Positions 2,718-53,374 of a stretch of DNA of 64,000 bases are shown in pieces. The first letter of the stretch is position 1. Every line of letters begins with the position of its first letter. Origin of the DNA: a virus; IMG/VR virus record IMGVR_UViG_3300037475_000211, positions 3,330 through 67,329 of that record. One strand, 5' to 3'. The translations under genes and the position numbers were made by a program. The notes under the pieces were generated by a model. It saw only the letters and a program-made list of their open reading frames with translations. It did not search any database and was not told the DNA's origin.

Positions 2718-2733
2718 TCCCATCATATAACGG
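2718..2733 (+). promoter_or_regulatory. TCCCATC-N3-TAACGG motif, copy 1
   Basis: tcccatc ata taacgg, 7 nt before the ATG at 2741. Confidence 0.65.
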
Positions 2734-2740
2734 GAGTATT

Positions 2741-3007
2741 ATGTATATAAAGATTCTAGGCTATGCCGCAATGATGTTTTTAATGCTCGGTGGTTTACCA
2801 CAAGCTTATAAAACATTTAAGCAAGGTCATGCTAATGGAGTATCTTCATATTATATTAATTTTTTATTAACTGGCTTTATATTAATGTTAATTTTTGTTT
2901 GTTTAACAAACAAATCAATTCCTTTGATTGTTAATTATATTGTAAATATAATAGCCTTCTTAATTTTAGCATGGTTTAAATCATTTCCTAGAGTAAAGAA
3001 TGTCTAA
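2741..3007 (+). CDS. PQ-loop / SemiSWEET-like 3-TM transporter
   Basis: LPQAYKTFK...ANGVS PQ-loop signature, three hydrophobic segments, 88 aa. Confidence 0.8.
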   Translation: MYIKILGYAAMMFLMLGGLPQAYKTFKQGHANGVSSYYINFLLTGFILMLIFVCLTNKSIPLIVNYIVNIIAFLILAWFKSFPRVKNV

Positions 3008-3792
3008 TGTAGAAATTGCAATAGAAGTAGCAACAGATCTAATTAGGTCAGGGGCATCAGAAGATCTTGTTAGATCAATTTTGTTACAAACTAGTGAGTT
3101 TACATCTGATAAAGTAGACACAATTTTATTGTGGGCAATTAATTTTAATAAAAAAATGAGGTTTATTAAATGACTTTCGAGCAAATAACTGATAATGAAA
3201 AGGTAATAAATCTAACTTCTTTAGATTTAGTGGTCCACGCTCGGCATCAATTGCTTTCTGCCGCCAAAGATCTAATTAAAGGACCACATCCTGGTGATGT
3301 AGAGTTCGGATTATCTTGTTCAGAACGTGCTGAAGCCCTGCAAATAGCTATTGATTTAGAGCAAAATGTCTAGTAGGTTTTTAAAATTAAAAGAAAATCA
3401 TCCAACACTTATTAAGTTAGAACAAATTTTTAGCTTAATGGAAGAGCTTCAAATAAGTTTTGATTTCTCTAATGTTGGTATGAGAGTAACTGATCAAAGT
3501 CAGGAACGATTTACTTTCTTTTATATGGAAGATTTAGAGGATGATCATAGTCCTATGAGTAATCTTCCACCAACTTTTGAATATAAAGTTCTTGCAGATA
3601 ATCCTAAATTTCTAGAAGAACAAGAATTGGCTACAAAGCAACGTCTTGAACAAGCTCTTAAGAAAAGAGAAGAGGCTGCCTTAAAAGAAGCTGAAGCAAA
3701 AAAGCAAGAGAAAATTCTTCATCTGGCAGAAAGAAAAGCCGCAGCTGTCTCGCTAGAAAAGCAGATTAAAGACTTAGAAAAGGAGTTAGGAA

Positions 3793-4014
3793 ATGAGTAG
3801 CAATAAATCAAATTTGTTTGATCTTTCTAAAGAAGAAATTTCTGAAACGTTATCAGATATTTCTGAAGAAGAAATAACGGAAGTACTAGAATCAATGGTA
3901 GAAAAAGGTTATCTTCGTGCCTTTATTAAAGACGGTGAACGTGTTTATGAAATAACTGAAGAAGGAAAATTAGCCAGAGATCACTCTGATTCCGATCCAA
4001 AACTTAGAAACTAA
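3793..4014 (+). CDS. Small winged-helix (PadR-like wing) protein
   Basis: LESMVEKGYL...VYEITEEGK. Confidence 0.55.
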   Translation: MSSNKSNLFDLSKEEISETLSDISEEEITEVLESMVEKGYLRAFIKDGERVYEITEEGKLARDHSDSDPKLRN

Positions 4015-4019
4015 AACTT

Positions 4020-4450
4020 AATTCAAATTCATTAATCTAAGAAAGAATTCGCTTAGAATAATGGGGTAGTTGCGCGACTACTTTTAGTATTATGAAGGGA
4101 GAGCCTTTAAGGCTTGAAGTTAAAATATTAGATTTGAACGGGTCTCAATAACCGAATAATTGAGGGCGCAGGCGGTCTGCCTTATACTAGCTCCAGTTTA
4201 TGTTAGTTGTTAATCTGGTAATTAAAATAACTTCCTTAGCTCTGTCTCTATGAGCGAATATAATCTAAGAGGGCTTTCCACTATGATTAAGCCATAAAAT
4301 AAAATCATAGAGGCACTGTCTCGCCATATCGACAGCAACATAATTACCTGCTTATCTGTTGTTAAATAGGTAATCCTCACCCTATAATTAATTTGCAAAT
4401 ATGTTAATGGGTCTGGGTTATAAGCAGGAACAATTTTATTCCCACTATAT
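4020..4450 (+). ncRNA. Candidate large structured ncRNA (~430 nt, family unknown; strand inferred from context)
   Basis: No ORF of 60 aa or more; many inverted repeats (tctaag/cttaga, ggggtagtt/gactacttt, gagcct/aggctt, ctcaat/attgag, ctatgatt/aatcatag, ctgtc/gacag, cctgcttat/ataagcagg). Confidence 0.5.
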
Positions 4451-4460
4451 GTGAGGCTTT

Positions 4461-5669: not shown

Positions 5670-5686
5670 TTTGAAAGAAATTTATT

Positions 5687-5971
5687 ATGACTGAACAATC
5701 AGATTTAGAAAAAGAATTTAAAGAGTCTGCCGAAAAATATTCAAGATTAATTGCTGCTAAAGTAGCACAAGCATGTCAATTGCTTTCTGAAGCTTGTGCT
5801 ATTTCAGAAGAGCATGGCATTCCTTTTGATTCCAATATATCTTTCCTTAGTCAAGGATATGTTCCAGATTCCTTTGCAACTAAATTCAAAGGATTAGATC
5901 GAGAAATAATGTATGAAGTTACTGGAGTGTATAACGAATATGAAGGTTGGCAGCATAGCCAAGTGTGTTAA
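5687..5971 (+). CDS. GW-x-x-S...C tail family protein
   Basis: Ends EGWQHSQVC; close paralog of 6659..6973 (GIPF, GYVP). Confidence 0.7.
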   Translation: MTEQSDLEKEFKESAEKYSRLIAAKVAQACQLLSEACAISEEHGIPFDSNISFLSQGYVPDSFATKFKGLDREIMYEVTGVYNEYEGWQHSQVC

Positions 5972-6630
5972 TTAGAGTTATGTCTAATTCCAGTTACTCC
6001 TTCTAATAAATTTTGTTTAGAACTTAATGGTCTTAAGTTGTTAAGTGACCAGCATAGTTTAAAGTTATCATCCTCCATAGATGTATATGGTAATGTTGAC
6101 TGTGGTATAATATGATCTATGCTCCAAGTCCAAGTTGACTGGTCATTATCATTCCATGTTTCTCTTTTATAGGGACCATGATTTTCCCAAGTCATCCAAG
6201 TTTCAAACTTAGACTTCAAGTAAAGTTTAAATTCATCCATAGTATATGGTACAAATTTCAAAAAACTCATTTGTTTACAGCTACCATTTGATTTAAGTGC
6301 TCTTGTTACTTTAGATGATAAATATTTTCGTAATTTCCAGGCAGGATTATTTTTTCTTTTATTACGCTCTCTAATATTAGTCGAAGATTTGGTTCTTTGT
6401 TTAGATAATCTATTTTGCTCTCTTCGCTTTGCAGTAATATTTCTTTCTCTAAATAATTCTTTATTATTTTCTCTGTATAGTTTCCTTTGTTTTTTAATTG
6501 TTTCGATATTATCTTCATGATATTTTTTAGAACAAAGAATACATGTTGCTCGTCTAGCTAATTTTTTAGAGTTTATAAAATAAAAATCTTCATCAGTTTT
6601 TAAAACTTGACATTTATTACAGGTTTTCAT
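5968..6630 (-). mobile_element. Free-standing HNH homing endonuclease
   Basis: N-terminal CxxC...CxxC, WMTWENHG, IDHIIP...NLRPL..KQN; antisense between two paralogs. Confidence 0.85.
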
Positions 6631-6636
6631 ATAAAA

Positions 6637-6644
6637 TATATATC
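6637..6644 (-). promoter_or_regulatory. GATATATA motif (putative late promoter) upstream of the HNH gene
   Basis: + strand tatatatc; the same motif precedes three other endonuclease genes. Confidence 0.45.
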
Positions 6645-6658
6645 GTAAGGAAAATAAA

Positions 6659-10010: not shown

Positions 10011-11316
10011 ATGTGTAATGAGTGTACTTTCTCTGAAAGTAAAAATGTTAAACATAATACTCTAAATTTAATTAGAGTGGATAAGGATGGAAAATATCAT
10101 TGTAAAACTTATCCGTGTTATGAATTGTTTTTTGAAAATAAAAAGCTTTGGTCTGCATATAAAATTCATGGTCGACTTCACAGAGAAGACGGACCAGCTG
10201 TTATTGAAATTTCTAAAGATGGCGTAGAACATTATAGTTGGTATATTGACGGATTTTCGTTGAAGGTTTCTTCTCAAGAAGAATTTGTAAATTCTACCTC
10301 TTATAAAGAGTGGAAACTAAGAGCATTCAAATAATGTGTGATGAATGTTTTGCAGAAGACATTGATAGTGAAAAACTTATTAATACAAATTATATTAAAA
10401 TAACTAATCATTTTAGAATAAATACAGACAAATTTCATTGTTTAACTGGTCCAGCAAGAACTTTTGTTTCTAAAAATAAAATTTATTATTACTGGTATGT
10501 TGATGATATTTGGATACATTGTTTTTCTCAAAAAGAATTTGAGTCTTCTAAAGAGTATAGAGTTTGGAAGTTAAAGGCTTTCACATAATGTGTAACGAAT
10601 GCTTTGAAGTTAAAGAGGGTTGTAATTTAATGAGAAGATCAATTAGTAATGGATCTTCTCATTGTTTATCTGATCATGCAATTATACTTAATTATTATAA
10701 GGCTGGATTAAAAATAGCTGATTGGTATATTAATGGGATTCGTATTAATGTAGGATCTCAAGAAGAATTTGAAAAGAGCAAAGAATATAGAGAGTGGAAG
10801 CTGCGAGTGTTTAAATAATGTGTAATGAATGTTTTATCAAAGAGTTTAACTATTTTCACGGAAAATTAGTTCAAAGAATTCAAAGATTTAATAAAAGTCA
10901 TTATCATTGTTTAACTGAACCCGCTAGATTATTCATTTATAATGATAATTTTGGCAGTTCTTTTGCCGACGTCGAAAAAGGTTGGTTCATTAATGGTATT
11001 GAAGTAAAAGTTTCTTCCCAAGAAGAACTAAAGAATTCTAATGAATATAGGATATGGAAGATGAGGGCATTTCATTAAAATAATGTGCAATGAATGTACT
11101 AAAAAAGATTTTAATCTTGCTGATGGAGTTTTAATTCAAAGAATTAATAAAGGATATTATCATTGTTTAACTTCTCCTGCTAGAGTTTTTATTAATAACT
11201 CTGGTAAAGTAGATAAAGATTGGTATATTGGTGGCATGCGAGTTAGAGTTTCTTCCAAAGAAGAGCTTGAGAAATCTTTAGAGTATAGAGAGTGGAAGAT
11301 AAAAGCATTTAAGTGA
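10011..11316 (+). repeat. Array of five tandem paralogous genes (starts 10011, 10334, 10588, 10818, 11083)
   Basis: Each begins MC[ND]EC, has HC, W[YF][IV]xx, S[QK][EK]E and ends WK[LMI][KR][AV]Fx; several joined by TAATG overlaps. Confidence 0.85.
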
Positions 11317-12686: not shown

Positions 12687-14272
12687 AATCTTATAATGCA
12701 AATTGAAGATATAATAAATCAACTTCCAAACCATTGGGAAATGTGGTCTAGCGAAGAAGCTTCTGGTTGGGATGACCATTATAGAGATGCTAATAAGCCA
12801 GGATTTATTAGGAAAGATAGATTAGCAAGAATTTACTTCCATAACACCTTAGACATATTTGGTATAGAGTTTGATTATCATAATGATGGTTATTTTAAAC
12901 AGACACTTAAGTTAGCAATAACTTATGCTGATAATTATATAAACCAATATCCTTTAGAGTTTCATGTCTGTCAAGTATGTCAATGCAAAGCTACTTGGTA
13001 TTACGTTCCTGCATCAGAAATGTTTTTAGATGATAAGTTCTATTGTGCAGAGCATGTTCCAAGAGGATGTAGTTGTAATTTAAACTCTAATGGTACAGAA
13101 GATTTAGATGATGATGGTACTACATTAAGACAGTTGCCTTGTATAGAGTACGAGTTTAATAACTTTGGATTTCCGAAAGAACTATAATGAATCATAAAAC
13201 AATTATAATTGTGTTTACTACTATTGCTATTATTTTTGTAAGTTTTATATTGGTAACAGCTATTAAATCTACAGGTCCAGAATATCATAATGCTTTAATT
13301 AAAGAAGCACATCAATGGTGTTTTGATATGAAATTAAATTGTGATGCCATTAATTGTCCAGATGATCATGAGTTTAGTATTTGTGATGTTAAATATGGAA
13401 ATAATTTAGTGTCATTAAATTGTGGCGGTGGATTCTGTTCTATTAGAGAGTTAAAGAAATAAACATGAGTCAATATGATTTGCCTGGCGAAGAAGACGAT
13501 TTAGCTTTAGTAAAATTAATAGCTGAAAAATGGGGATATGGAAGATTAATGCAATTTTTATCCCAAGAATGGTATAAGAAAGATCCGATAGGAGCCTTAA
13601 CTATTGGTCCAGCATATCAGCATTATGAAAAAGTTAATTCTATGTTAGATAATTTAATTGGAGATTATAAATCTAATGAAGAAGAATTGACCGCAGAAGA
13701 TTTAGATGTTTTAAATATGATTTTTAAAGAACGCCATGAGGAAGAACATTCTGTATTAGATCCTGATGGCGAGATAGATGATACCTAATGAATCAATATA
13801 AAAATATAAATTATTATAGCACTTTAAATTTAAATGGTGGCAGCTTATCGTTCAGTGATAACCTTCTTGATATTTATGCCATAATAGAATTCAAAGATTT
13901 TAGAATAATTTTAAAAAACATTGGAGATAATTTTGAAATTATTGGAACAAGAAAATCAGATTTATTAAATTTTTATTCCTTAAAAATAAAAGAACATGAT
14001 TTATTGAATTATATTCAAAAATTAATTGATTCTGCATCAGAAAAAATGTTAGCAATACCAGAAAGAAAATCGTCTCAATTTGCACCCTTTGATAAATCTA
14101 CACATGAAGCTAGAATGAAGCGCATCAAAGCATTGTCTAAGAGACAATATATGGATGATGGTCCTGTAGCATTGTATCATGCTTTGCTTCAATTAAAAGA
14201 AAAAGGTTTCGATGGTACTTTGGAGTGGGCTTTGCTAGAGCTGGAAAAACTTTATAAATTGAATGAGGAAGC

Positions 14273-14288
14273 TCCCATCGAGTAACGG
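14273..14288 (+). promoter_or_regulatory. TCCCATC-N3-TAACGG motif, copy 2
   Basis: tcccatc gag taacgg, overlapping the stop of 13788..14285 and upstream of the phosphoesterase. Confidence 0.65.
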
Positions 14289-14316: not shown

Positions 14317-14883
14317 ATGTTATGGCTAACTTCAGATAATCATTATTTTCATAATAATGTGATAAAATATTCATCTCGCCCATTTGCTGATGTTCAAGAA
14401 ATGAATGAAACACTAATTAAAAATTGGAATGCAGTAGTCAAACCTAATGATGAGGTTTGGGATCTTGGCGACTTTTCATTTGGAAATTATATGCAAACCT
14501 GTGCGATCTTATCGAGATTAAATGGTAAGCATCATTTTGTCATGGGAAACCATGATAAAATTATTGCTCAAAATAAACAAGATTTATTGAAATCAAAACT
14601 ACTTCATAGTATTCAAGATTACAAAGAATTAAAATATAATGGTAATAATATTGTTCTGTTTCATTTCCCAATGAGAACTTGGAATCGTGCACATCATAAC
14701 AGTATATTATGCCACGGACATTGTCATGGTAATATTGATATGTGGGGTAAATCAGTTGATATTGGCGTAGATGCAAAGTTTATTCATTCAGAATATAGAC
14801 CAACTTCACTTGATGAAATTATAGAATTTATGAATAAAGTTCCTGTAAAGATTGTTGATCATCATGATGGAAGCAGAATGTAA
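14317..14883 (+). CDS. Calcineurin-like metallophosphoesterase
   Basis: SDNH, LGDF, GNHD, HFP, HGHCH. Confidence 0.9.
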   Translation: MLWLTSDNHYFHNNVIKYSSRPFADVQEMNETLIKNWNAVVKPNDEVWDLGDFSFGNYMQTCAILSRLNGKHHFVMGNHDKIIAQNKQDLLKSKLLHSIQDYKELKYNGNNIVLFHFPMRTWNRAHHNSILCHGHCHGNIDMWGKSVDIGVDAKFIHSEYRPTSLDEIIEFMNKVPVKIVDHHDGSRM

Positions 14884-14973: not shown

Positions 14974-15699
14974 TTAAATTCTGGAAATATGCTTCCAAGC
15001 ATATCCTAATCTGATTTTTCCAATAGTTATTGATGATACATTAAATTCTAACGCTATTTCATTATCTTTAATATTGTTTTTAATTTTGTTTATAATTAAT
15101 AAAACATCATTTTCTTTTAATTTAGCCCTTGAATTATTTTCACCTTTACTCTGTTCAGACATCTTTTTTCTTGTTTCTGTTGTTGGAATAACAGATATCC
15201 CTTTTCTTCCACGTGAAATTGCAGCGCAAGTTGCAGCAGACCGCTTTTTACCTTTACGTTGTTCCGACCACTTTTTTCTTGTTTCACTTGTATGTTTCAT
15301 GCCAATTTTAGCTTGGCTAATTTTTAATTTTGTTTCTTCTGTTTGGCGTCTGCCAAGCATATTTTTTCTATGTTTCTCTCTTGTTTCATCAGAAACAATT
15401 TTTTTAGATAAATTTCCTCCAAGCTCTATATTGTAGCCTCGGCATTCATCTCTACTTTGTAAATATTCAATCCAAAATATTTCTGCTTCATCAATAATAT
15501 CTGACGAATATTCTGCAAATACAATAAATTCAAAATTATTTATACCATATTTTCTCATAGAACTATATAATTTACCAGGAGCTAACCTAGAAAAACAATC
15601 ATATTTATGTTGATTTTTCCTTCGTGTAGGATTTACAGTTTGTCCTATATAAATTTTATTATTTAAAATATTTCTAAATATATAGATATAATGTGTCAT
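14974..15699 (-). mobile_element. GIY-YIG homing endonuclease with NUMOD3 repeats
   Basis: YIYIF...IYIGQT; ETR/ETKLKIS repeats; GENNSRAKL. Confidence 0.9.
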
Positions 15700-19974: not shown

Positions 19975-19990
19975 TCCCATCGTATAACGG
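19975..19990 (+). promoter_or_regulatory. TCCCATC-N3-TAACGG motif, copy 3
   Basis: tcccatc gta taacgg in the intergenic gap before 20015. Confidence 0.7.
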
Positions 19991-20014: not shown

Positions 20015-21217
20015 ATGCAATCAGTTATATTTGATATTCCTGCCACGAAAAAGTCTTCTGTTGAAGTTCAACTCTCTAAGTTTAATAAGAGAGCTGAGAG
20101 GCTTAATATGGAAGCTATTGTTTGGTCTTGGGGAAAAGCTTTTAATAAAACTATTGATCGTGTTATCAATACTGGCGTTGATTCATTTACTGAAACTCAA
20201 AGTGTTTTATTTATTCCAATTACTATTGAGGGCAATTTAGATGTTTCTTTTGATGGATGGGAGTTTGTTGCAACTCTTCAACATTTAAAAACTGGCGAGA
20301 ATATTATTAGAACTTTAAAAGGATCTAATTACGAGATTCCGGTTCAATATAGAAATTCTGGTAGTGCTTGTGAACATTGTCGAGTTAAAAGATATCGTAA
20401 GGATACTTATTTATTAAGCCATAAAAATGGTGATACTGTCCAAGTCGGAAGCAGTTGCATTAAAGACTTTCTAGGAGATAATACTCCAGAAAATATTTTA
20501 AACAAAGCAAGTCTTGTTTCTGAGCTTCATTGGTACTTAAGCGGCTCTGCTACTGGTGGTGCTGGTGGGGACATAGTATTTCCTATCTTAGATTTTTTAA
20601 GTAAAACATCTGCTATTATTTCTAAATATGGCTGGGTTAGTAAGTCAAAAGCTTATGAAGAAGGAGCAATGTCTACTGCATCAATGGTTTTGGATGATTT
20701 ACTTCCCCCTCAAAATGCAGGATGTCGACCCATTCATGTTTCAAATGCTGATATTTTCAAGGCACAAGACGCATTAAATTGGGTAGAATCATTGACTGAT
20801 GAACAGTGTTTAGAGTCTGATTATTGTTATAATATTAGAACCATTTGTAGGAGCGGAATGGTTGGCATGAAAACGGTTGGATTTGCTGCTAGTATCATTT
20901 CTAGTTATGAAAACCATTTAAAGAAAACTACAGCAAAAGTAAAGGCTGTCTCTAATCATGTTGGTAATGTAAAAGATAAAGTGGAGTTTAAATTAACTCT
21001 AAAGGTAGAATCTACTTTTGCAACCAGATATGGTCTTACTCGACTTTATATTTTTAATGATAAAGATGGAAATGAATTTGTTTGGATGACATCTAAAGAT
21101 GAAATGTTGAAAGAGAAATCTAAATATTTAGTTAGTGGTACTATTAAAGCGCATGATAATTATAAAGGGACGGCACAAACACATTTAACTCGTTGTAAGG
21201 TTTCAACTTCATTATGA
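20015..21217 (+). CDS. Phage protein with Zn-binding region and probable C-terminal OB fold
   Basis: CEHC...R...VGSSC; C-terminal GTIKAH..YKG..QT.LTR. Confidence 0.55.
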   Translation: MQSVIFDIPATKKSSVEVQLSKFNKRAERLNMEAIVWSWGKAFNKTIDRVINTGVDSFTETQSVLFIPITIEGNLDVSFDGWEFVATLQHLKTGENIIRTLKGSNYEIPVQYRNSGSACEHCRVKRYRKDTYLLSHKNGDTVQVGSSCIKDFLGDNTPENILNKASLVSELHWYLSGSATGGAGGDIVFPILDFLSKTSAIISKYGWVSKSKAYEEGAMSTASMVLDDLLPPQNAGCRPIHVSNADIFKAQDALNWVESLTDEQCLESDYCYNIRTICRSGMVGMKTVGFAASIISSYENHLKKTTAKVKAVSNHVGNVKDKVEFKLTLKVESTFATRYGLTRLYIFNDKDGNEFVWMTSKDEMLKEKSKYLVSGTIKAHDNYKGTAQTHLTRCKVSTSL

Positions 21218-25878: not shown

Positions 25879-26265
25879 ATGAGCACACGAATTATGTATC
25901 TACGAGACAATAACAATCCTCAGGGCAAAGGCAATCCGATTGGCTGTTTGGCTATTGGAATTAATGATGTGCCTAATGGAACTTCCACAGGCAAAATCAT
26001 TTGCGCTAATATCTTTTATCAATTATCAATTTGTCATCCAAATGATAAATTTGATCGCCAATTTGGGCAATCAAGGGCTATGGGTAAACTTCAAGGTCTC
26101 CCAATTTATGCAGGCAACATTCAAGAAAAAGAAATATCAATTCATCAAATTACTTCTATGGTCATGAGTCATGTATCAAAGAATAAAGATTTTCCTGTTC
26201 GTATTCGTCAATCTGCACAACGCTGGCTTTCTGGCGCCATGTTAAAAGCTGTAGCAGTACTGTAA
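25879..26265 (+). CDS. Hypothetical phage protein
   Basis: AAGGA RBS; SICHPNDKFDRQFG..RA motif. Confidence 0.5.
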   Translation: MSTRIMYLRDNNNPQGKGNPIGCLAIGINDVPNGTSTGKIICANIFYQLSICHPNDKFDRQFGQSRAMGKLQGLPIYAGNIQEKEISIHQITSMVMSHVSKNKDFPVRIRQSAQRWLSGAMLKAVAVL

Positions 26266-26269: not shown

Positions 26270-26369
26270 TCCCATCATCTAACGGTAATCATCCAGAGAA
26301 TGAAGGTTGCCGTAAGGCTGGAGCCTGAACACAAGTGAAGGTTCCCATCATCTAACGGTAGTCATCCAG
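26270..26369 (+). promoter_or_regulatory. TCCCATC-N3-TAACGG motif, copies 4 and 5 (26270-26285, 26343-26358), within a 27-bp direct repeat
   Basis: tcccatcatctaacggta[a/g]tcatccag occurs twice, 73 bp apart. Confidence 0.75.
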
Positions 26370-26401: not shown

Positions 26402-26845
26402 ATGGTAAATTTAATAGCAACAATTGGCGGACTGTTCGCAGTCTTTACATTTGTGTATTTCTTTGTGGACTGGTTACTGCAAACTCATGCTGAGGCAATG
26501 GTTAAACATAATAACTGGAAGGTTAGAGCTAGGCACTGTGTAATTTATACTGTAGGATTTATTCCTCTAATGTGGTTAGTAAAATTTACTGCACTAGAGG
26601 TTGTGATTGGTTTGAATATTTTATTCTGGTCTCACTTTTATTTAGATACATATCACGGAGTTTATCTTTGGTGTAAATATATTAGAAAGCCTCCCGAAAT
26701 TGTTAATGCAAAAGACCCTAAAGAGGGCTTCGTTGCATTTGTACAAACAACTTTAGGCAAAATATTATTAATAGCCGTTGATCAAATTTTTCATCTACTA
26801 TTTTTATTATTGATTTGTTGTTGCTTTGTTATCTCTAAAATCTAA
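26402..26845 (+). CDS. DUF3307-like membrane protein
   Basis: DWLLQT...K...H..IY, SHFYLD, DQIFH. Confidence 0.7.
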   Translation: MVNLIATIGGLFAVFTFVYFFVDWLLQTHAEAMVKHNNWKVRARHCVIYTVGFIPLMWLVKFTALEVVIGLNILFWSHFYLDTYHGVYLWCKYIRKPPEIVNAKDPKEGFVAFVQTTLGKILLIAVDQIFHLLFLLLICCCFVISKI

Positions 26846-27385
26846 AAGAGATAAAATCATTACTTTAGTTTCTTCAACTGTAAATTTATCAGAACGAATT
26901 TGATTACAAGTAGTACAGCAAGGCAAAACATTATCAATGTGATATCCGTGACTATTGTCAATACGATCTAATCCTCTACCAAATGAAGGTGTATTCATTT
27001 TGTCATTACAATAATAACAAGGTTTAGAGATTAAATCAGTGTATTCTTCTAATGTTAAAGAAACCTGTAATTCATATAATTTACCTTGATTTATTAAATA
27101 TTTATATCTTACATCAGGGCGTGATTTATTTTTTTGACGAGATAGTCTCAGTATTTCTTTTATCTTTAGTTTTTGTTCAGGGGTAAAATTTTTACGTCTT
27201 TGTATATCATATGCGCGCTTTGCCGCCTTCTTTTCATTTGCTTTGATTTGAATTTCTTCTGGCGTCATTTCTTTTTTATTTTTCCTTCTTTTATTATGAT
27301 ATCTTTCATTATCATATTGTCGAATTATTTTTAATTCCTCTGGAGTTAAATCGCTTCGTTTTTTTGAAAAAATACTTTTTATCAT
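26807..27385 (-). mobile_element. HNH (His-Cys) homing endonuclease
   Basis: PCYYC, GLDRIDNSHGYHIDNVLPCCTTCN; GATATATT upstream at 27406-27413. Confidence 0.85.
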
Positions 27386-36978: not shown

Positions 36979-38127
36979 ATGTTAAGAAAAACTACTTCTG
37001 TAAGAAAAAATTGGGAAAAGACTATTGAATCTCAAGGGTTTTTATTTCATTCAGTTGAAGGTAAACCTTATTGGGATGAGTCTGCATATTATGAGTTTAC
37101 TTCTGCACAAGTAGATGAATTAGAAGCTGCTACTAATACTTTACATGAGATGTGTTTAGCTGCTGTACAGCACGTTATTGACAACAAACTATATGCTAAG
37201 CTTCATATTCCTGAATGGGCAATTCCTTTAATTGAATATTCTTGGAACAACGAAACACCTGCTATTTATGGTCGATTTGATTTTTCTTATGATGGAAAAT
37301 CTTCTCCCAAGATGTTAGAGTATAATGCGGACACTCCGACTTCTTTATTAGAGTCTGGTGTTATTCAGTGGTTTTGGATGAAGGATAAGTTTCCTGCCGC
37401 CGATCAATTTAATTCTATTCATGAAAAATTGGTTGCCAAATGGACTGAGTTAAAAGACTATTTGAATTTTGGTCCCTTATATTTTACTGGACTTGATATG
37501 ATTGAAGACTATATGAATCTTCAATATATGATGGAGACTGCTAAGCAAGGTGGACTTGAAGTAAAGGAAATTAATATTGCCGATATTGGTTGGCATAATA
37601 TTGATCAAAAGTTTATTGATAATGAGTACTATACCATTACTAATATGTTTAAACTTTATCCTTGGGAGTGGTTATTGCATGAAGAATTTGGCAAAAACAT
37701 TGCAGCATGCTTTGATAAGACTTTTTGGATTGAACCACCATGGAAACTTATCCTTTCTAATAAAGGAATTCTACCTATTTTATGGGAATTAAATCCAAAT
37801 CATCCTAACTTGTTGCCGGCATTCTTTGATAAGAATCCTGCTCTTGGAGATAAATTTATTACAAAACCGCTTTATTCTCGTGAAGGTTCTAATATAACTA
37901 TTTTTGATGAATCTTCTAAAGAGCTAAAGGTGATGGAAACTGATGGTGAATATGGTGAAGAAGGAGTTATCTTCCAAAAGTTTGCACCATTAGCTGATTT
38001 TGATGGCAATCATCCAATGATTGGTAGTTGGGTGATTGATGGAGTTTCGGCTGGTATTGGTATCAGAGAAGATAAGACTTTGATTACTGGAAATTTTAGT
38101 CGCTTTGTTCCGCACATCTTTAAATAA
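36979..38127 (+). CDS. Glutathionylspermidine-synthase-like ATP-grasp ligase (YgiC-like)
   Basis: YWDESAYY, YGRFD, EYNADTPTSLLE, FKLYPWEW, SNKGIL, SREG, SRFVPH. Confidence 0.92.
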   Translation: MLRKTTSVRKNWEKTIESQGFLFHSVEGKPYWDESAYYEFTSAQVDELEAATNTLHEMCLAAVQHVIDNKLYAKLHIPEWAIPLIEYSWNNETPAIYGRFDFSYDGKSSPKMLEYNADTPTSLLESGVIQWFWMKDKFPAADQFNSIHEKLVAKWTELKDYLNFGPLYFTGLDMIEDYMNLQYMMETAKQGGLEVKEINIADIGWHNIDQKFIDNEYYTITNMFKLYPWEWLLHEEFGKNIAACFDKTFWIEPPWKLILSNKGILPILWELNPNHPNLLPAFFDKNPALGDKFITKPLYSREGSNITIFDESSKELKVMETDGEYGEEGVIFQKFAPLADFDGNHPMIGSWVIDGVSAGIGIREDKTLITGNFSRFVPHIFK

Positions 38128-39040: not shown

Positions 39041-39889
39041 ATGTGTATTTCAACTAGTTTGAGCAGAATGTCAGATACTTTATTGTATTCTGGAGAAGGT
39101 ACTTATAATGATAAGTATGTTCATGTGATGGCATATCAAAATTCAGCCTATAATTTATCTAATGTCGCCAATGCTATGATTCTTCCGTTTCCGACTTCTC
39201 AGGAAATGAATGAGAATAACATTATAGATACGACTACCTTCTCTTCTTTCTTAAAAAATATCTCTGATGCAACCAAGTTACACAGTAAAATGTTGGGAGG
39301 GTTCGCACTTAATAGTGATAAATTAGGATCTCGAAGCTTTAAAGTTTTTGATAAGGGATCTTATACTGTAGTTCTGGCAAATGATTTAAATAAGATTCAA
39401 GATGCATTACAGTTTGTTCCAGAGCATAAGAGACCTATCATCACTGATGAGTTCTTAGAAGGTTATGGATCTTTATATAAAGATCTTCCAGTCGCTATTT
39501 GTTGTTGGGCTGGCAATGTAAAAGCCGAGCCTTTGTTATGGTGGTATGAGCCTAAGGATAAGGAAACATTCTTTATTCCAACTATGGATGCTCATGATGG
39601 TAAAGCACCAATGCCACGAGTTACAGTTGATACAGATCATATCATCTCGGTAGGATCTGCAGTAAATGACTTATCTACGTCTAAAGTTTATTATAATCAA
39701 AAAATTCCAACCAGTGTAGCCGGTCTTTTACCAACTTCAGTATATGGAACTAAAATAAATTTTGGCATTCCTAATGGTGATATGTGGATTGATGTTAGGC
39801 AGCCGGGTCATTTTCCGCTACTTAACAGAGGTCTATTTAATACTAGAGAAGTGTTCGCTAGAGATATTAGAATGGATGGATGGTACTAA
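39041..39889 (+). CDS. Hypothetical protein
   Basis: 282-aa ORF with RBS; NAMILPFP, PTMDAHDG. Confidence 0.5.
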   Translation: MCISTSLSRMSDTLLYSGEGTYNDKYVHVMAYQNSAYNLSNVANAMILPFPTSQEMNENNIIDTTTFSSFLKNISDATKLHSKMLGGFALNSDKLGSRSFKVFDKGSYTVVLANDLNKIQDALQFVPEHKRPIITDEFLEGYGSLYKDLPVAICCWAGNVKAEPLLWWYEPKDKETFFIPTMDAHDGKAPMPRVTVDTDHIISVGSAVNDLSTSKVYYNQKIPTSVAGLLPTSVYGTKINFGIPNGDMWIDVRQPGHFPLLNRGLFNTREVFARDIRMDGWY

Positions 39890-39895: not shown

Positions 39896-39911
39896 TCCCA
39901 TCATCTAACGG
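39896..39911 (+). promoter_or_regulatory. TCCCATC-N3-TAACGG motif, copy 6
   Basis: tcccatc atc taacgg, 22 nt before the tRNA-like RNA. Confidence 0.7.
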
Positions 39912-39933
39912 TGGTGTTACATGAATTAACAAT

Positions 39934-40010
39934 GTCTCGATACCGGCTCATTTTTCTAAATTGAGTACCGTAATTGGATTATGTAGGTTCGATCCCTACT
40001 CGAGATGCCA
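39934..40010 (+). ncRNA. Atypical tRNA-like RNA lacking a D arm
   Basis: GTCTCGA/TCGAGAT acceptor, G-CCA end, GTAGG-TTCGATC-CCTAC T arm; a single hairpin gctca..tgagt in place of D and anticodon arms. Confidence 0.6.
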
Positions 40011-40395
40011 GGCAATTGTAAATTAATATGAATTTTAACGAAGCTTTTAAATCTTTTAAAGATAAATATTTATCTACTCCAAGAGTAATTAATATCATTG
40101 AGAATGATTTTGGTGGAAATGATATTACTGTTCTTTATTATGATAAGCATGATAAGTCTCCGCCTTTAACTATGTCTTCTTGGGAAGGCTATCCTGTTGT
40201 TCATAGGGGAATGATTGAACTTAGAGATATGTGGGAACATATATTTGATATTCAGGTATTGAATGATCCCAACTCTTGGGAGCAAGAAGTCCCAATGTCT
40301 TGTCATTATAAGTCTGTTGCTAAAAAGATAGCTGAATATGAATTGAGGAAATAATTCTACTACACAGAAATGAAATAACTGATATATAATAACGT

Positions 40396-42915: not shown

Positions 42916-43494
42916 ATGAAAGGTTTAAGATTTTTAAAACAATGTGAACATTATCCACAAAGTGTTTTCATACATGATGGTGTAGAATATTTTGCAAGTG
43001 ATGCTGATAATGTTTTCTCTTTTAAAGGAGATTTGGTCGTCAATTTAACGCTTGAACCGGGAATTAGAACACTTGGTACGGCATATAATATTCCGGAGCT
43101 ATCTTCTCATCTAATTAATTTGCCATCAGAGTTAGTTTTAGCTTGGCCAGATATGTCTAGCCCACCAGTAAAAACTTCTTTTTGGGAAGCTTTTCATCTT
43201 TATTGTAAAAAGAAAAAATATAAAAAAGTTTTATTCCATTGTCATCATGGTCATGGAAGAACTGGCACCGCCTTATGTGCAATGCAAATTTCTTTGTTAA
43301 AGAAAAAGGCTGATTCTGCTATTAGAAGTATAAGAAGAACATACTGTAATCATGCAGTTGAGTCACCAAATCAAATTCAATATCTAATCTTTTTAGATGA
43401 AGATTTAAATAATAGAAAATATCCAGAGGATGAGATTGAGTTTGAAAAATTAATTAATGATTTAAGCTCTTTAAGAGGAAATAAAAAAATATAA
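42916..43494 (+). CDS. Protein-tyrosine / dual-specificity phosphatase
   Basis: WPD loop, HCHHGHGRTG (CX5R), AVES..Q. Confidence 0.88.
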   Translation: MKGLRFLKQCEHYPQSVFIHDGVEYFASDADNVFSFKGDLVVNLTLEPGIRTLGTAYNIPELSSHLINLPSELVLAWPDMSSPPVKTSFWEAFHLYCKKKKYKKVLFHCHHGHGRTGTALCAMQISLLKKKADSAIRSIRRTYCNHAVESPNQIQYLIFLDEDLNNRKYPEDEIEFEKLINDLSSLRGNKKI

Positions 43495-44603: not shown

Positions 44604-45005
44604 TATGTTTGCTTTAGGACACATTCATTTTAAAAACTATACTGTTTGGGTGATACCACCTGTCTTTACCATTAAACCTTATCAGCAAGGTGCTGATGAA
44701 TTATCTTATTATGAAGTCCTTCTTACTGAAAAGGGACAAGCTAAAGAAGATAGTACAACACCCAAACACTTACAGTATAATTTTTATATAGATATTGCTA
44801 CTTCATCTTTATTTAAACATCTTTTAGATTTAAATGAAAGAAATCAGCCGATTGAAGGTAAGACCGATATGGTTCAGTATCAGTCCTACTTAGATCGTAA
44901 GAGTAGCTCGCAGCCTCTTTATAAACTATCTAAGAAGAGTGTTGAGAGATTGCTTCAGAGTATCTCAGAGGCTGAGGCGTAATATTATAAATTGATTGTA
45001 GAGGC

Positions 45006-45021
45006 TCCCATCAAGTAACGG
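45006..45021 (+). promoter_or_regulatory. TCCCATC-N3-TAACGG motif, copy 7
   Basis: tcccatc aag taacgg upstream of a structured leader and tRNA. Confidence 0.7.
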
Positions 45022-45153
45022 TTGATACTCTATAGTTATTAGGGACGTGATATAGCAATATCATGATATAAACTTTGAAGTAGGTTATTGGAAAATTAAA
45101 GATAATTCCCCTCCTTTTTATTTTTGAATAGAAAAATAATCTACTTCATTTAT

Positions 45154-45238
45154 GCTGTTATGATGGAACTGGCAGACATCCACGTCTAAGAAGCGTGTGC
45201 CGTAAGGTGTACAGGTTCAAGTCCTGTTAACAGCACCA
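45154..45238 (+). tRNA. tRNA-Leu(AAG)
   Basis: GCTGTTA/TAACAGC acceptor, CACGT-CTAAGAA-GCGTG, long variable arm, TTCAAGT, ACCA. Confidence 0.9.
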
Positions 45239-49260: not shown

Positions 49261-49283
49261 TAATTTTAATTTATAAGGAAAAT

Positions 49284-50743: not shown

Positions 50744-50750
50744 TAAATAA

Positions 50751-50957
50751 ATGACATTATTTCTAATTGTATTAGCTGTTATAGTATTGATCCTATCTAT
50801 TCGTTATGGATTCTTTGGACTAATACTTGATATTATATTTGCCATCTTAGGTTCCAAAGGTGGTGATTCTTCTAGTTCCGATTCGTCAGGTTCATCTAAT
50901 GGAAATGGATTTGGTGGAGGAGATTCTGGTGGTGGCGGAGCTTCCAGTGATTGGTAA
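50751..50957 (+). CDS. Small TM protein with Gly/Ser-rich tail
   Basis: Ends GFGGGDSGGGGASSDW. Confidence 0.65.
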   Translation: MTLFLIVLAVIVLILSIRYGFFGLILDIIFAILGSKGGDSSSSDSSGSSNGNGFGGGDSGGGGASSDW

Positions 50958-50975
50958 CTAAGAAAGATTAAATTT

Positions 50976-52088
50976 ATGAAAAAATATATTACACTATTGA
51001 TTGCCGTACTTGCTACGGTCTTTACGGCGAATGCTTTTGCATTTACTCCCCCAGATAAGCCTGCTAGTGGCTGGTATATCCTTGATCAAGCCAATAAATT
51101 AACTGAAGATCAAAAAACCAATCTCAATAAAAAGATTGATGGAATTAATAAAAATACTAAAAATGAATTTGGTGTTTTAATTATTCAGTCAATGGATGGA
51201 GATAACATTGAAGATGTTGCTCAGAATACTTTCCGAGCTTGGGGAGTTGGTAAGGCTGGATTAAATAACGGAGTACTATTAGTTATTTCTGTAGGTGATC
51301 GTAAGATGCGATTGCAAACTGGCAAAGGTGTTGAAGGTGATTTGCCAGACTTACGAGCAAAAGATATTTTAGATGAAAATCTTAAACCTTTCCTTAAGAA
51401 GGGAGATTATTATGGCGGTATTGATTCTACTATTAGTGCAGCCTCTTCTTTCTTAGAGAGTAGAGCTAATGCTCCAGTGGAAACTGTATCAAATACTTCT
51501 GGTGCAACTTCGAAAAATTCTGGAGTGGAATGGCTAATAGTATTATTGTTCTTGGGAATTTTTGGTGGAGTTGGTCTTATTTCTTGGCTTGTAAGCCGAA
51601 GTAAACGTAAACGAGAAGAAGAAAGCAATCGTCTTTATGAGTCTTCAAGAATCTTTGCGCTTCAGCAAGAAAGAGCTAGACTTCAAGAAGCTATGTTCGC
51701 AAAACCTTATCACATAGATAATAGCTTTACTTCAACCCACACTTCAAAAACTGAAATTTCAGCAACTGCCATTGGTGTTGGTGCAGTAGCCGCCGCAGCG
51801 GGTATTGGTGGTATTGCAATAGCAACAACTGCAGTTAGTCGTGCTGCTGAAGCTAAGAAGCGTAAAGCTGCTGAAGAACGAGAGGCTGAAGCTGTTAAGC
51901 GTAAAAAGGAAGAAGAAGATGCGACGGCGCGTAGACGTAGTGAAGAAAGTTCATATTCGTCATATTCTTCTTCAGATAGTGGAAGCAGCTATAGTAGCTA
52001 TGATAGTGGAAGTAGTTCCAGCTATGATAGTGGTGGAGGATTTGGTGGTGGTGACAGCGGCGGCGACGGCGGGTCTAGTGATTTCTAG
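50976..52088 (+). CDS. TPM-domain (YgcG-like) membrane protein
   Basis: Signal peptide, DQANKL, WGVGK...NNGVLL, G.G.EG.LPD; Gly/Ser tail ending GGSSDF. Confidence 0.88.
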   Translation: MKKYITLLIAVLATVFTANAFAFTPPDKPASGWYILDQANKLTEDQKTNLNKKIDGINKNTKNEFGVLIIQSMDGDNIEDVAQNTFRAWGVGKAGLNNGVLLVISVGDRKMRLQTGKGVEGDLPDLRAKDILDENLKPFLKKGDYYGGIDSTISAASSFLESRANAPVETVSNTSGATSKNSGVEWLIVLLFLGIFGGVGLISWLVSRSKRKREEESNRLYESSRIFALQQERARLQEAMFAKPYHIDNSFTSTHTSKTEISATAIGVGAVAAAAGIGGIAIATTAVSRAAEAKKRKAAEEREAEAVKRKKEEEDATARRRSEESSYSSYSSSDSGSSYSSYDSGSSSSYDSGGGFGGGDSGGDGGSSDF

Positions 52089-52107
52089 TTTAGAAAGATT
52101 ATAATAA

Positions 52108-52827
52108 ATGATAAGTGGAGTAAAGTATGTTGTTGATTCAAGCAATAGTAAAATTGCTGGTTCAAATAAAGTTGATAGTACTTATGCTTCAATTGAAGCA
52201 TCATGTTCTTCAGCCTGCCCGCTGAAGCAGGGAGAATGTTACGCCCAAAATTCATTTACAGGCTTTCATGTTAGAAAATTAGATGAAGCTTCAAAAGGAA
52301 AGTCACCATTACAAATAGCAAGACAAGAGGCTGCTTCTATAAATGACTCTTATAATGGAAAGAAAATTCCAGCAGGCAGGGATTTAAGGATTCATGTATC
52401 TGGTGATTCAAGAACCATTCAAGGTACAAGATTAATTAATAAAGCTGTTGGGAATTGGAAACTTAGGGGAGGGAATGATGTTTGGACATATACTCATTCA
52501 TGGAGGCATGTTCCAAGAAAAGAATGGAGCAATGTTTCTATTTTAGCTTCTGTTGATTCTATTAAAGATGTTAATGCAGCAAGAAAGCAAGGTTATGCGC
52601 CAGCCTTAATAGTAGCAGAACATATTTCAGATAAAGCTTATTCTTTACCAGAATCAAAGATAAAATGGATTCCATGTCCCAATCAGACTAAAGAAGATGT
52701 TAGTTGCTCATCATGCCGATTATGTTTTAATGCAGACAGGTTATTTCAAGGACATTATGGAATTGCCTTTGCTGCCCACGGGATTAATAAGAATAAAATT
52801 AAAAGAAGATTAGCAGTCATCCAATGA
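52108..52827 (+). CDS. Cys-rich phage Gp88-like (possible Fe-S) protein
   Basis: NSK, CxxxCP....CYA, RIHVSGD, WTYTH, CP...CxxCxxC, F.AHG. Confidence 0.6.
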   Translation: MISGVKYVVDSSNSKIAGSNKVDSTYASIEASCSSACPLKQGECYAQNSFTGFHVRKLDEASKGKSPLQIARQEAASINDSYNGKKIPAGRDLRIHVSGDSRTIQGTRLINKAVGNWKLRGGNDVWTYTHSWRHVPRKEWSNVSILASVDSIKDVNAARKQGYAPALIVAEHISDKAYSLPESKIKWIPCPNQTKEDVSCSSCRLCFNADRLFQGHYGIAFAAHGINKNKIKRRLAVIQ

Positions 52828-53330
52828 AGTCTAAAGATACTTTTTGCAGTTACTGTGGTAATATTTTTAATCCAAATCAAATTTATCCCAAAGTTTGTTT
52901 GAGTTGTGCCAATATAACTTATAATAATCCTTTAGCAGTTACAGCAACGGTTATTCCAGTTATAGATTATTTAAATGATAATCGTCATGGAGTCCTGGTA
53001 GTAAAAAGAAACATTGAACCTAAGAAAGGTCAATGGGCATTACCTGGAGGATTTCTTGAACAAGGAGAGTCTTGGAAAGAAGGCGCAGCAAGAGAAGTGT
53101 TTGAAGAAACAGGTTTAGATTTAAACAATAATGAATTTGGATTACTTTCTGTAGAGACTGCGTCTAATGGAAATCTAATAATATTATGTGATTGTGGTGC
53201 AATCAATTTATCTGAAATTGATTTTCATTCTAATGAAGAGGTTACTGAAATTAAAGTAATATATGAGTTCGAAGAATTAGCTTTTCCAACTCATACTGAA
53301 GCTCTGCGACTTATGTTAATGCCAGAATAA
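52824..53330 (+). CDS. Zn-ribbon Nudix hydrolase (ADP-ribose pyrophosphatase-like)
   Basis: FCSYCG...CLSC...YNNP, WALPGGFLE.GES...AAREVFEETG, LAFPTH. Confidence 0.88.
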   Translation: MKSKDTFCSYCGNIFNPNQIYPKVCLSCANITYNNPLAVTATVIPVIDYLNDNRHGVLVVKRNIEPKKGQWALPGGFLEQGESWKEGAAREVFEETGLDLNNNEFGLLSVETASNGNLIILCDCGAINLSEIDFHSNEEVTEIKVIYEFEELAFPTHTEALRLMLMPE

Positions 53331-53358
53331 TTTTTATTTTATAAATTAATTTATAACG

Positions 53359-53374
53359 TCCCATCGCATAACGG
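53359..53374 (+). promoter_or_regulatory. TCCCATC-N3-TAACGG motif, copy 8
   Basis: tcccatc gca taacgg, 15 nt before the ATG at 53390. Confidence 0.7.

Follow-up and report, generated by a model that had tools for sequence, protein, structure and literature searches.

The 16-bp word TCCCATC-N3-TAACGG (hereafter the box) recurs on one strand at gene starts and is most likely a phage-specific expression signal unlike sigma-70 promoters, either a promoter or an activator site. Judged from its sequence and distribution, we consider it probable that the box is a class-specific phage promoter element that host RNA polymerase recognises once redirected by a phage factor. The window, i.e. the whole stretch of 64,000 nt analysed here, covers part of the genome of an uncultured phage that is about 450 kb in size; a relative with a complete sequence of 447,763 bp is referred to as G001. 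A motif scan of the window returned eight copies of the box, all on the + strand, with the spacers ATA, GAG, GTA, ATC, ATC, ATC, AAG, and GCA in that order. The copies and the features accompanying them are as follows.

2718..2733, + strand: box, spacer ATA; 1 nt past the stop of ORF 2423-2716, ending 7 nt before ATG 2741 (88-aa PQ-loop protein); box at the orthologous G001 junction at 38054
14253..14260, + strand: TATAAATT word, 20 nt upstream of box 14273
14273..14288, + strand: box, spacer GAG; its own TAA doubles as the stop of ORF 13788-14285; ATG 14317 sits 28 nt downstream
19975..19990, + strand: box, spacer GTA; 21 nt past a stop, 24 nt before ATG 20015 (400-aa protein, phrog_2319); 2-mismatch box at the orthologous G001 junction at 53240
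26270..26285, + strand: box, spacer ATC; 4 nt past the stop of ORF 25879-26265
26343..26358, + strand: box, spacer ATC; 43 nt before ATG 26402 (147-aa DUF3307 protein)
39896..39911, + strand: box, spacer ATC; 6 nt past the stop of ORF 39041-39889; a tRNA-like stretch follows; G001 counterpart at 71736 with 1 mismatch, standing 34 nt ahead of tRNA-Arg(tct)
39930..40011, + strand: putative tRNA-like stretch (T-arm, acceptor end, CCA), read from the sequence by eye
44986..44993, + strand: TATAAATT word, 20 nt upstream of box 45006; conserved upstream of G001 76020
45006..45021, + strand: box, spacer AAG; 23 nt past the stop of ORF 44605-44982; G001 counterpart at 76020, 77 nt before tRNA-Leu(tag)
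45076..45148, + strand: long hairpin between box 45006 and tRNA-Leu; folding z = -3.5
45154..45238, + strand: tRNA-Leu(aag), 132 nt downstream of box 45006 with only the hairpin RNA between
53340..53347, + strand: TATAAATT word, 19 nt upstream of box 53359
53359..53374, + strand: box, spacer GCA; 28 nt past a stop; ATG 53390 exactly 15 nt downstream

Copy number, strand and spread of the box

A rescan bore out all eight copies with the positions and spacers given in the initial annotation, and 100 dinucleotide-preserving shuffles of the window contained no match. Allowing up to two mismatches on both window strands added no further box (0.41 expected). The genome-wide scan for strand bias that the annotation had proposed yielded nine boxes forward and none reverse in the whole record from which the window is taken (67 kb), the ninth lying 2,966 bases upstream of the window. 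The pattern read backwards, used as a control on the same record, gave no match in either orientation. The box proved to be non-palindromic, as had been claimed: it contains no dyad, and its reverse complement was absent from the + strand of the window's record and of G001.

In G001, whose proteins are about 30–85% identical to those of the window's record, 62 exact and 27 one-mismatch boxes were found, all forward and none reverse. They are confined to one region, which starts at 433.6 kb and runs across the contig end as far as 76 kb, and about 80 of them fill a GC-richer block of 33 kb with roughly one box per tiny, unrelated gene. The box constituted the most enriched upstream 7-mer set of this genome; genes over 55–430 kb, the structural region included, are preceded by another word, tGATATAT. 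Seven further metagenome contigs, which came from several assemblies and were picked up with an extended box pattern, held 53 boxes that were co-oriented within each contig (53/53). Taken together, every one of the 151 boxes in nine contigs matched the direction of the genes, in agreement with the annotated co-orientation with transcription. No box occurred in the distant relative Salicola phage SCTP-2, even with one mismatch allowed. The genes following boxes are mutually unrelated, the largest similarity cluster comprising 3 of 74 proteins, which indicates that selection, not gene duplication, maintains the box. Across 98 sites, the 13 fixed letters were 81–100% invariant while the 3-nt spacer was free; conservation was confined to the 16-letter box and upstream letters carried no information. 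Including variants of the first letter, the consensus reads (T/A/C)CCCATC-N3-TAACGG.

Position at gene starts and conservation between relatives

Distances to the flanking stop codons and ATGs, measured against the ORF list, confirmed the proposed placement at gene boundaries, and boxes were found ahead of both ORFs and tRNA genes, as described initially. An ATG lies 15–16 nt after the box at 38 of 89 G001 sites, and on the other contigs a start codon (ATG, GTG, or TTG) follows 13–16 nt after 30 of the 53 boxes; the 15-nt spacing at box 53359 is the one dominant in the relatives. The upstream stop codon is overlapped at 14 of the 62 exact G001 sites and by 11 of the 53 copies on other contigs, the TAA within the box often serving as that stop. 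Boxes occur about once per 300–400 bp, some being only 108–160 nt apart, and Shine-Dalgarno-like 4-mers were rarer before box genes (10/48) than before others (207/601). Within 98 kb of G001 holding six tRNA genes, boxes stand 23, 34, and 77 nt ahead of three of them, indicating that the role of the box is not tied to translation alone. ARAGORN and Rfam called no tRNA in the stretch 39930..40011. The hairpin at 45076..45148 matched no Rfam family; its loop holds a C-rich, anti-Shine-Dalgarno-like run, and the G001 counterpart has the same loop on different stem letters (z = -4.6).

A weak T-A-A-T signal (T28-A29-A30-T31) was observed 12–15 nt downstream of the box, and its T at position 31 persists in 33 of the 48 sites that have no start codon there. 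At 50 of 98 sites the signal abuts or overlaps the start codon. In this half of the sites it cannot be a -10 element for the gene concerned, since transcription would begin 7 nt further on, already within the gene.

At six orthologous junctions between the window's record and G001, agreement amounts to 75/78 for the fixed box letters, 116/360 for the flanks, and 6/18 for the spacers; the letters of the box are the only ones conserved there. The G001 ortholog of the gene at 14317-14883 has an AT-rich upstream region and no box, and the reverse exchange occurs at G001 45564, where a box stands against a different region upstream of the ortholog. Box 19975 precedes about 2.8 kb that are absent from G001, where the decayed 2-mismatch box marks the empty junction. 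Boxes 26270 and 26343 form a tandem pair, 73 nt apart, and correspond to a single G001 box at 57129. The TATAAATT word recurs 19–20 nt upstream of four boxes (14273, 45006, 53359, and G001 76020).

In the dense G001 block, 14 of 24 terminator-like hairpins on the + strand have a box within the next 120 nt; in 2000 draws of random positions the mean was 6.7 and the maximum 13. Sigma-70-like sites in this block were near shuffle level (64 vs 55.3 and 60 vs 57.6). No inverted repeat was detected in or around the box, and two box leaders folded no better than shuffles. An intrinsic terminator or RNA hairpin signal was rejected, as there is no dyad and the leaders fold like shuffles. Three G001 boxes (434737, 438236, and 439917) have a common short hairpin directly upstream.

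The promoter reading and known promoter classes

A promoter is suggested by the copy number together with the strand rule, by the sharp edges of the box, and by its footprint at orthologous junctions. Further support comes from boxes placed after terminators in a block where sigma-70-like sites are at shuffle level, from the exchange with an AT-rich upstream region, from the restriction to one region, and from the tandem pair at 26270/26343, an arrangement usual for promoters. The spacing between the two halves is about one helical turn, which would suit a protein reading one face of duplex DNA. Against this reading, the layout is like no known promoter type, with halves 3 nt apart and nothing conserved upstream, and no clear TATAAT-like hexamer was detected between box and start codon. 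A look-up of RNA runs for this DNA returned none. Moreover, the density and the fixed start spacing are equally explained by an RNA signal located directly ahead of each ribosome site, and the strand rule and the position after terminators would be expected of any signal tied to gene starts.

From this pattern we infer an action on DNA, a reader protein, a transcription start, and an expression time of the class. The box would be recognised on double-stranded DNA, co-oriented with the genes. After infection, a factor made or delivered by the phage would steer host RNA polymerase to it, either as a sigma-like protein or as an activator replacing -35 recognition. Transcription would start inside the 3' end of the box or within about 13 nt after it; the compact form would have a leader of at most about 17 nt containing a purine-rich ribosome site, and the start codon 15–16 nt after the box. 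In complete relatives the class would comprise a block in which about 80 tiny genes, of the host-takeover type, are gathered, and it would also take in scattered genes and tRNA/small-RNA units in the stretch covered by the window.

The initial annotation had suggested a promoter or activator site for a phage RNA polymerase or sigma factor. The comparative evidence upholds an expression signal at gene starts; a phage RNA polymerase was not detected in G001. Profiles for phiKZ/AR9-type enzymes (PF00623 and PF00562) gave no G001 match at E <= 1, with controls found in 14/14 genomes, although very divergent enzymes could escape them. A regex search of G001 for the catalytic aspartate motif returned no convincing context, and PF00940, the profile for T7-like single-subunit polymerases, whose control matched 0/14 genomes, had no match in G001 or the window's record. 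The largest unknown G001 proteins gave tail and baseplate leads or nothing against Pfam, PHROGs, and Atlas. Two sigma-type proteins were found in G001, a divergent member of the sigma-70 family (209 aa), the only one to have both sigma regions, and a sigma-region-4-like protein, and no result ties either to the box. The G001 sigma was matched only by the general model of the sigma-70 superfamily and does not resemble RpoH; a true RpoH-like sigma is present in Salicola phage SCTP-2.

Class-specific promoters read by redirected host RNA polymerase are known from the middle promoters of T4 (MotA box) and the middle and late promoters of SPO1. Like these, the box is a short phage-specific word unlike the host -35/-10, is co-oriented, and belongs to one temporal or regional class, while a second word, tGATATAT in G001, marks other genes. 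However, it is longer and far more invariant, and its density of about one per gene is far higher. In T4 middle promoters the activator box lies about 12 bp upstream of a TAnnnT -10, with the start about 7 nt after; the weak signal, read as T-A-n-T, follows our box by 11–12 nt, close to this distance, but unlike the T4 element it reaches into the start codon at half of the sites. Promoters of phage RNA polymerases, which are single-subunit in the T7 group and multisubunit in phiKZ and AR9, resemble the box as near-invariant, asymmetric, contiguous words of about 16–23 bp before the transcribed region whose degenerate copies are almost absent (none were added in the window at up to two mismatches). 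In contrast to those phages, no such polymerase gene was detected in G001 (the PF00940 control matching 0/14 genomes); for a multisubunit enzyme, no beta/beta'-like subunit was matched.

In the variable regions of T4-type phages, promoter-plus-stem-loop cassettes (PeSLs) flank small early genes. The box likewise repeats before small, unrelated, fast-evolving genes within a variable block, here in a phage distantly related to T4, and sits at insertion/deletion edges between relatives, a few copies with a common upstream hairpin. Unlike PeSLs, which carry host-type sigma-70 early promoters, it has no -35/-10, and most copies lack a hairpin. The absence of a sigma70 consensus match, noted initially, held up: the halves are 3 nt apart, neither resembles the hexamers, and the flanks contain no such signal. 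A host sigma-70-type promoter was rejected, as no TTGACA/TATAAT-like hexamers 16–18 bp apart were present. A sigma-54 (-24/-12) promoter, whose GG and GC words are separated by one helical turn, has a similar two-block geometry; it was rejected because the letters differ and Sigma54_DBD had no match in G001. The -10 region consensus of E. coli sigma-32 is given as CCCCATWT / CCCCATNT in PMC6687850. CCCAT is common to this region and the first half of the box, (T/A/C)CCCATC, whereas the TAACGG half has no counterpart; a sigma-32-type promoter was rejected, as no conserved -35 word was present 13–15 bp upstream.

Alternative readings and implications

Doubtful, though worth weighing, is an action on RNA, in which a sequence-specific endoribonuclease or RNA-binding protein would act just ahead of each ribosome site of a long polycistronic transcript, by cutting or by binding. 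The box would then fix the 5' ends of single-gene mRNAs, their stability, or their timing, and would free tRNA precursors. Such punctuation fits the strict confinement to one strand, the near-fixed distance to start codons (38/89 in G001 and 30/53 elsewhere), the frequent overlap with upstream stop codons (14/62 and 11/53), and the scarcity of Shine-Dalgarno-like 4-mers (10/48 vs 207/601). Copies before tRNAs fit a processing signal too, as does one box per cistron, some 108–160 nt apart; no promoter array is known to be as dense as this. However, there is no conserved hairpin and no information beyond the 16 letters, the leaders fold like shuffles, and the sequence-specific phage mRNA nucleases known so far read far shorter words. 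In addition, boxes follow terminator-like hairpins, where a new start is needed, the dense block contains no other conserved promoter-like element to make a long precursor, and the free 3-nt gap between halves one helical turn apart would be typical of duplex DNA recognition. Two bolder alternatives together command no more than tentative belief: a virion-delivered transcription machine invisible to the profiles, or an RNA punctuation mark at which a sequence-specific factor would cut or bind ahead of every cistron and tRNA of a long early transcript, as in organelles.

It is unlikely that the box is an operator, on which a repressor or other regulator switches the gene class while the true promoter is weak, variable, and nearby. 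A sharp, invariant two-part box has the size of a protein site, the weak T-A-A-T downstream could belong to a separate core promoter, and the TATAAATT word lies 19–20 nt upstream at four sites. Yet the box is asymmetric while most operators are dyads, nothing else is conserved around most boxes, and at half of the sites the T-A-A-T runs into the start codon, which would place a start 7 nt on inside the gene. We give very little credence to a DNA role outside transcription, as a strand-specific nick or cassette recombination site: the confinement to one strand, the cassette edge at 19975 with its 2.8 kb absent from G001 and decayed box left behind, and the hairpin shared by G001 434737, 438236, and 439917 would agree with it, but the fixed 15–16 nt to start codons and the placement before tRNAs are unexpected, the box is conserved where gene order is unchanged, and no repeat or dyad structure accompanies it. 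Least probable of all is a translation enhancer pairing with 16S rRNA. In its favour, the distance to the start codon is fixed, and E. coli 16S rRNA 1403–1418 agrees with the box's reverse complement at 11 of the 13 fixed letters. This comparison, however, was made post hoc with E. coli rRNA and was equalled by 7 of 200 shuffles (about 3.5%). That stretch lies within the folded decoding centre, the box lies 16–31 nt before the start codon, beyond mRNA contact with that part of the ribosome, and some boxes stand ahead of tRNA genes and a non-coding hairpin.

The box marks about 90 genes and several tRNA/small-RNA units of the complete genome as one regulatory class, and it delimits a GC-richer block of tiny orphan genes that is likely a host-takeover set. 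A factor that binds DNA or RNA with a specificity of 13 letters is predicted, for which the box can serve as bait, and the box can be used to recognise metagenome fragments of this phage group. If the reader is a compact sigma or activator, the box would provide a strict, orthogonal 16-bp promoter as a part for synthetic biology. A virion-delivered machine, if real, would explain the switching-on of about 90 genes that lack host-type promoters in a giant phage related to T4 in which no RNA polymerase is recognisable, and either of the bolder alternatives would represent a new mode of organising early gene expression in phages. To our knowledge, hardly any work exists on phages of 400–500 kb akin to Salicola phage SCTP-2, and their gene timing is nowhere in print; the box provides a precise handle on gene timing in these giant phages.

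Placement of the box in the window

A pattern scan of the window for the 16-bp box TCCCATC-N3-TAACGG reproduced all eight copies reported in the initial annotation, at 2718, 14273, 19975, 26270, 26343, 39896, 45006 and 53359 on the + strand, together with their spacers. No match occurred in 100 dinucleotide-preserving shuffles of the window, and no extra copy with up to two mismatches was present on either strand of it (0.41 expected). When scan and strand-bias check were extended to the whole IMG/VR record of which the window forms bases 3330–67329 (67,329 bp, completeness rating 15%), nine forward copies and no reverse copy were obtained, the ninth lying upstream of the window. A look-up of sequencing runs containing this DNA listed no RNA run; one DNA run is probably the source sample.

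The G+C content of the window is about 30%, and its long ORFs lie nearly all on the + strand. Set against the ORF list, every copy falls at a gene boundary, as had been claimed. The boxes start 1–28 nt past a stop codon, except for 14273, whose internal TAA is the stop codon, and are followed by a start codon at 7–43 nt or by RNA genes. The proposal that they precede coding sequences or tRNA-like RNAs was borne out as well, since box 39896 stands before a tRNA-like stretch and box 45006 before the following gene:

45154, + strand: tRNA-Leu(aag), downstream of box 45006

At 26270–26358, a 73-nt tandem duplication spans the box and about 20 nt downstream of it; the corresponding junction of G001, a complete IMG/VR relative, has a single box.

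Relatives of the phage and conservation of the box

No cultured phage matched 8 kb of the window by Megablast, and the relatives of two window proteins found by tblastn all had less than 45% identity. The best phage match of the ORF at 20015–21217 was Salicola phage SCTP-2 (440 kb; 27.7% identity by tblastn), which contains no box even with one mismatch. Among the proteins encoded in the window are a glutathionylspermidine synthase, an RNA ligase and DUF7275. According to a passage in PMC6102473, SCTP-2, Atu_ph07 and XacN1 form the sister group of Rak2-like, distantly T4-like giant phages. An IMG/VR scan for the box plus T returned at least 117 stretches; among the matches listed, only G001 had several copies, and the others had one copy each, which is chance level. 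G001 has 447,763 bp, is rated 100% complete and has 31% G+C, with 654 of 730 greedily chosen ORFs on the + strand. The window's record is collinear with its 32–95 kb region, at best-hit protein identities of about 30–85%. Searches for related loci returned one 5.6-kb contig without box for the protein downstream of 26343, and G001 alone for a 547-aa protein profile. Four minus-strand ORFs (5968–6630, 14974–15699, 26807–27385 and 56207–56815) break the + gene array of the window and look like inserted mobile genes; their best matches sit elsewhere in G001, two of them matching ORF 414,975–415,598. Five adjacent small ORFs at 10011–11316 all match the single G001 ORF 43200–43454, and one small gene has here undergone local tandem expansion.

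G001 carries 62 exact boxes, all forward (backwards-read control: 0), and 27 forward but no reverse boxes with one mismatch; the strand bias disappears with three mismatches (19 versus 26). Most mismatches change the first T to A or C, or turn TAACGG into TGACGG or AAACGG, and from this concentration we take CCCATC-N3-TAACGG as the core. Boxes with up to one mismatch are confined to a region running from 433.6 kb across the contig end to 76 kb. A dense block between 433.6 kb and 19 kb accounts for about 80 of these, at a spacing of roughly 400 bp, and has 39–42% G+C compared to about 30% elsewhere in G001. The block straddles both contig ends and could be the end that is injected first or a terminal repeat that has been collapsed.

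In a position table of 98 sites, upstream letters carry no information, the box edges are sharp, the fixed letters are 81–100% invariant and the 3-nt spacer is free. Weak downstream signals comprise purines at 19–21, a pyrimidine at 24, T-A-A-T at 28–31 and ATG at 32–34. ATG-initiated frames of at least 25 codons begin within 70 nt past the box at 74 of 89 G001 sites, and exactly 15–16 nt past it at 38 of the 89. The TAA of TAACGG is the stop codon of the upstream ORF at 14 of the 62 exact sites, and those proteins therefore end in Pro-Ile-X. The compact form packs gene, box, ribosome site and next gene with a stop-to-start gap of only 18 nt. The genes that follow are tiny (25–196 aa) and mutually unrelated; the largest similarity cluster among their proteins comprises 3 of 74, which rules out spread of the box by gene duplication. 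Terminator-like + strand hairpins of the dense block have a box within 120 nt downstream in 14 of 24 cases; random positions averaged 6.7 such cases and never exceeded 13.

Six orthologous junctions of the window's record and G001 were picked from the synteny table and aligned gap-free, anchored on the box.

Orthologous box pairs (own-record side, all + strand; G001)
363; 31853
2718; 38054
26343; 57129
39896; 71736
45006; 76020
19975; 53240

At these junctions, 75 of 78 fixed box letters were identical, and the free spacer letters agreed in 6 of 18 cases. Of the flank letters, 116 of 360 (32%) were identical, which is about chance for this composition. Copies lacking a counterpart (window 14273, window 53359 and G001 45564) were excluded from this count. 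The G001 ortholog at window 14273 has an AT-rich region with sigma-70-like words in place of the box, and the window counterpart of G001 45564 is a plain AT-rich upstream region.

A metagenome scan with the box and its commonest downstream form yielded seven further contigs from several assemblies, with 53 copies at up to one mismatch, all co-oriented within each contig. One metagenome contig of 8.8 kb carries 28 boxes, and BLASTN showed no similarity to G001 for four of the seven. A start codon lies 13–16 nt past the box in 30 of the 53 copies (ATG 22, TTG 5, GTG 3), and an upstream ORF ends inside the box in 11. Its occurrence thus extends to a broader group of uncultured phages. On metagenome contig L177 (1510 bases), three of four boxes are preceded by the common word CTCG(T/C)T(T/A)CGCTC, which the other contigs lack.

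RNA genes and words next to the box

In the 98 kb of G001 examined, boxes stand 23, 34 and 77 nt ahead of three of the six tRNA genes found. These copies, together with that before the hairpin RNA and tRNA-Leu of the window, rule out a pure translation signal. The long hairpin between box and tRNA-Leu (window 45076–45148; G001 76058–76108) has fold scores of z = −3.5 and −4.6 in the two genomes. Its loop, identical in both, holds a C-rich, anti-Shine-Dalgarno-like run, CCCCTCCTTTTT, whereas the stems differ in sequence. The hairpin may function as a small RNA or as a structured leader of the tRNA. The tRNA-like stretch at window 39930–40011 has a T-arm, acceptor end, CCA and TCT in its loop. 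It was called by neither ARAGORN nor Rfam, and no Rfam family was found for the hairpin either. At the orthologous position G001 has a regular tRNA-Arg(tct), and the window stretch may be a decayed or unusual tRNA. Likewise, window 54263–54375, a 113-nt Rfam tRNA match (35.3 bits) not listed by ARAGORN, may be a tRNA with an insert.

The word TATAAATT, which resembles the T4 late-promoter word, lies 19–20 nt upstream of four boxes (window 14253–14260, 44986–44993 and 53340–53347; G001 ~76000) and might act as a second promoter in tandem or form part of a composite one. As a general class, T4-late-type TATAAAT was rejected, having no strand bias in G001 (224 forward versus 227 reverse); among words of this type, only TATAAATT at its fixed distance from the four boxes stands out. 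A second class of upstream words, tGATATAT, occurs in G001 at 55–430 kb, 14–45 nt ahead of start codons (86 forward, 43 reverse; 31 copies within 70 nt of starts, structural-gene region included), and is probably another promoter class. The CTTTGCATATTGCAA repeat upstream of some G001 boxes, dropped as a signal, reads as the conserved Cys-x-x-x-Cys coding end of small proteins. TGAAAGC, a word overrepresented ahead of genes, is where the coding sequence of a repeated protein family ends (…KAFW).

The box as a putative promoter element

We consider it probable, with moderate confidence, that the box is the recognition element of a class-specific promoter. This reading is based on the strand rule and the footprint at orthologous junctions, the occurrence before both protein and RNA genes, the replacement of the box by different upstream sequence in front of orthologous genes, the tandem pair 26270/26343, the boxes that follow 14 of the 24 terminator-like hairpins, and the limitation to one contiguous region, with tGATATAT preceding other genes, structural ones included. 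In this role the box would act similarly to the promoter words that mark gene classes in large lytic phages; its repetition before each small variable gene also recalls the promoter cassettes of T4-type phages. The invariant halves, one helical turn apart across a free gap, suggest that one protein reads one face of the duplex.

The initial annotation had proposed a phage-specific promoter, for a phage polymerase or sigma factor, or an activator site. Strand, conservation and placement support this in general terms; a phage RNA polymerase was not detected in G001. Searches of G001 for multisubunit RNA polymerase (PF00623 and PF00562) gave no match while 14 of 14 controls did, and a PF00940 search was silent for both G001 and its control. 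PHROGs and Pfam revealed no polymerase domain in the six largest unknown G001 proteins; Atlas leads for two large ones, leads only, pointed to tail-spike or baseplate. Since no phage enzyme was detected, the host RNA polymerase would probably be redirected to the box. Mere candidates for the redirecting factor are a divergent 209-aa sigma-70-family protein of G001 (382,573–383,202) with regions 2 and 4, without match in cultured phages by tblastn, and a sigma-region-4-like protein encoded near 258.6 kb.

With CCCATC in the −10 role, the transcription start would fall near box position 15–16; CCCAT is shared with the E. coli sigma-32 −10 consensus as given in a passage of PMC6687850. With TAACGG as the −10 part, the start would lie about 7 nt past the box, and the T28-A29 signal, which persists at sites without a start codon there, would place it 12–13 nt past the box. 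All three placements would give leaders of 3–17 nt in the compact form. Short leaders and a box abutting a minimal ribosome site may explain the fixed box-to-start spacing. A host-type promoter was ruled out: letters and spacing of the box are unlike sigma-70, as initially noted, and the dense block contains sigma-70-like sites only at shuffle level. By their defining features, the box could be assigned to none of the promoter families tested.

An RNA-level junction signal would explain the density of one box per cistron, the fixed start-codon distance and the stop-codon overlap at least as well as a promoter, and copies before tRNAs fit it too. However, the box is without any structure, no other promoter is there to make the precursor, and the terminators count against it; we regard this alternative as unlikely. 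A hairpin signal was ruled out, the box having no dyad and nothing conserved around it. An operator beside weak promoters appears distinctly improbable, and a nick or recombination site more so. Least credible is an rRNA-pairing enhancer: E. coli 16S rRNA 1403–1418 is complementary to the box in 11 of 13 letters, but 7 of 200 shuffles equalled this, and we judged it chance. No guide-like antisense copy of the box occurs on the + strand.

Full-text searches, and term searches in the XacN1 and Atu_ph07 papers, yielded no printed description of the box, and a search for both half-words gave primer coincidences only. A term search for 'promoter' found no occurrence in either paper, and passages of the Atu_ph07 paper mention only a late-transcription sigma. 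We conclude that the box is a genuine regulatory word, under strong selection and widespread, in a group of giant phages that has so far gone unstudied.
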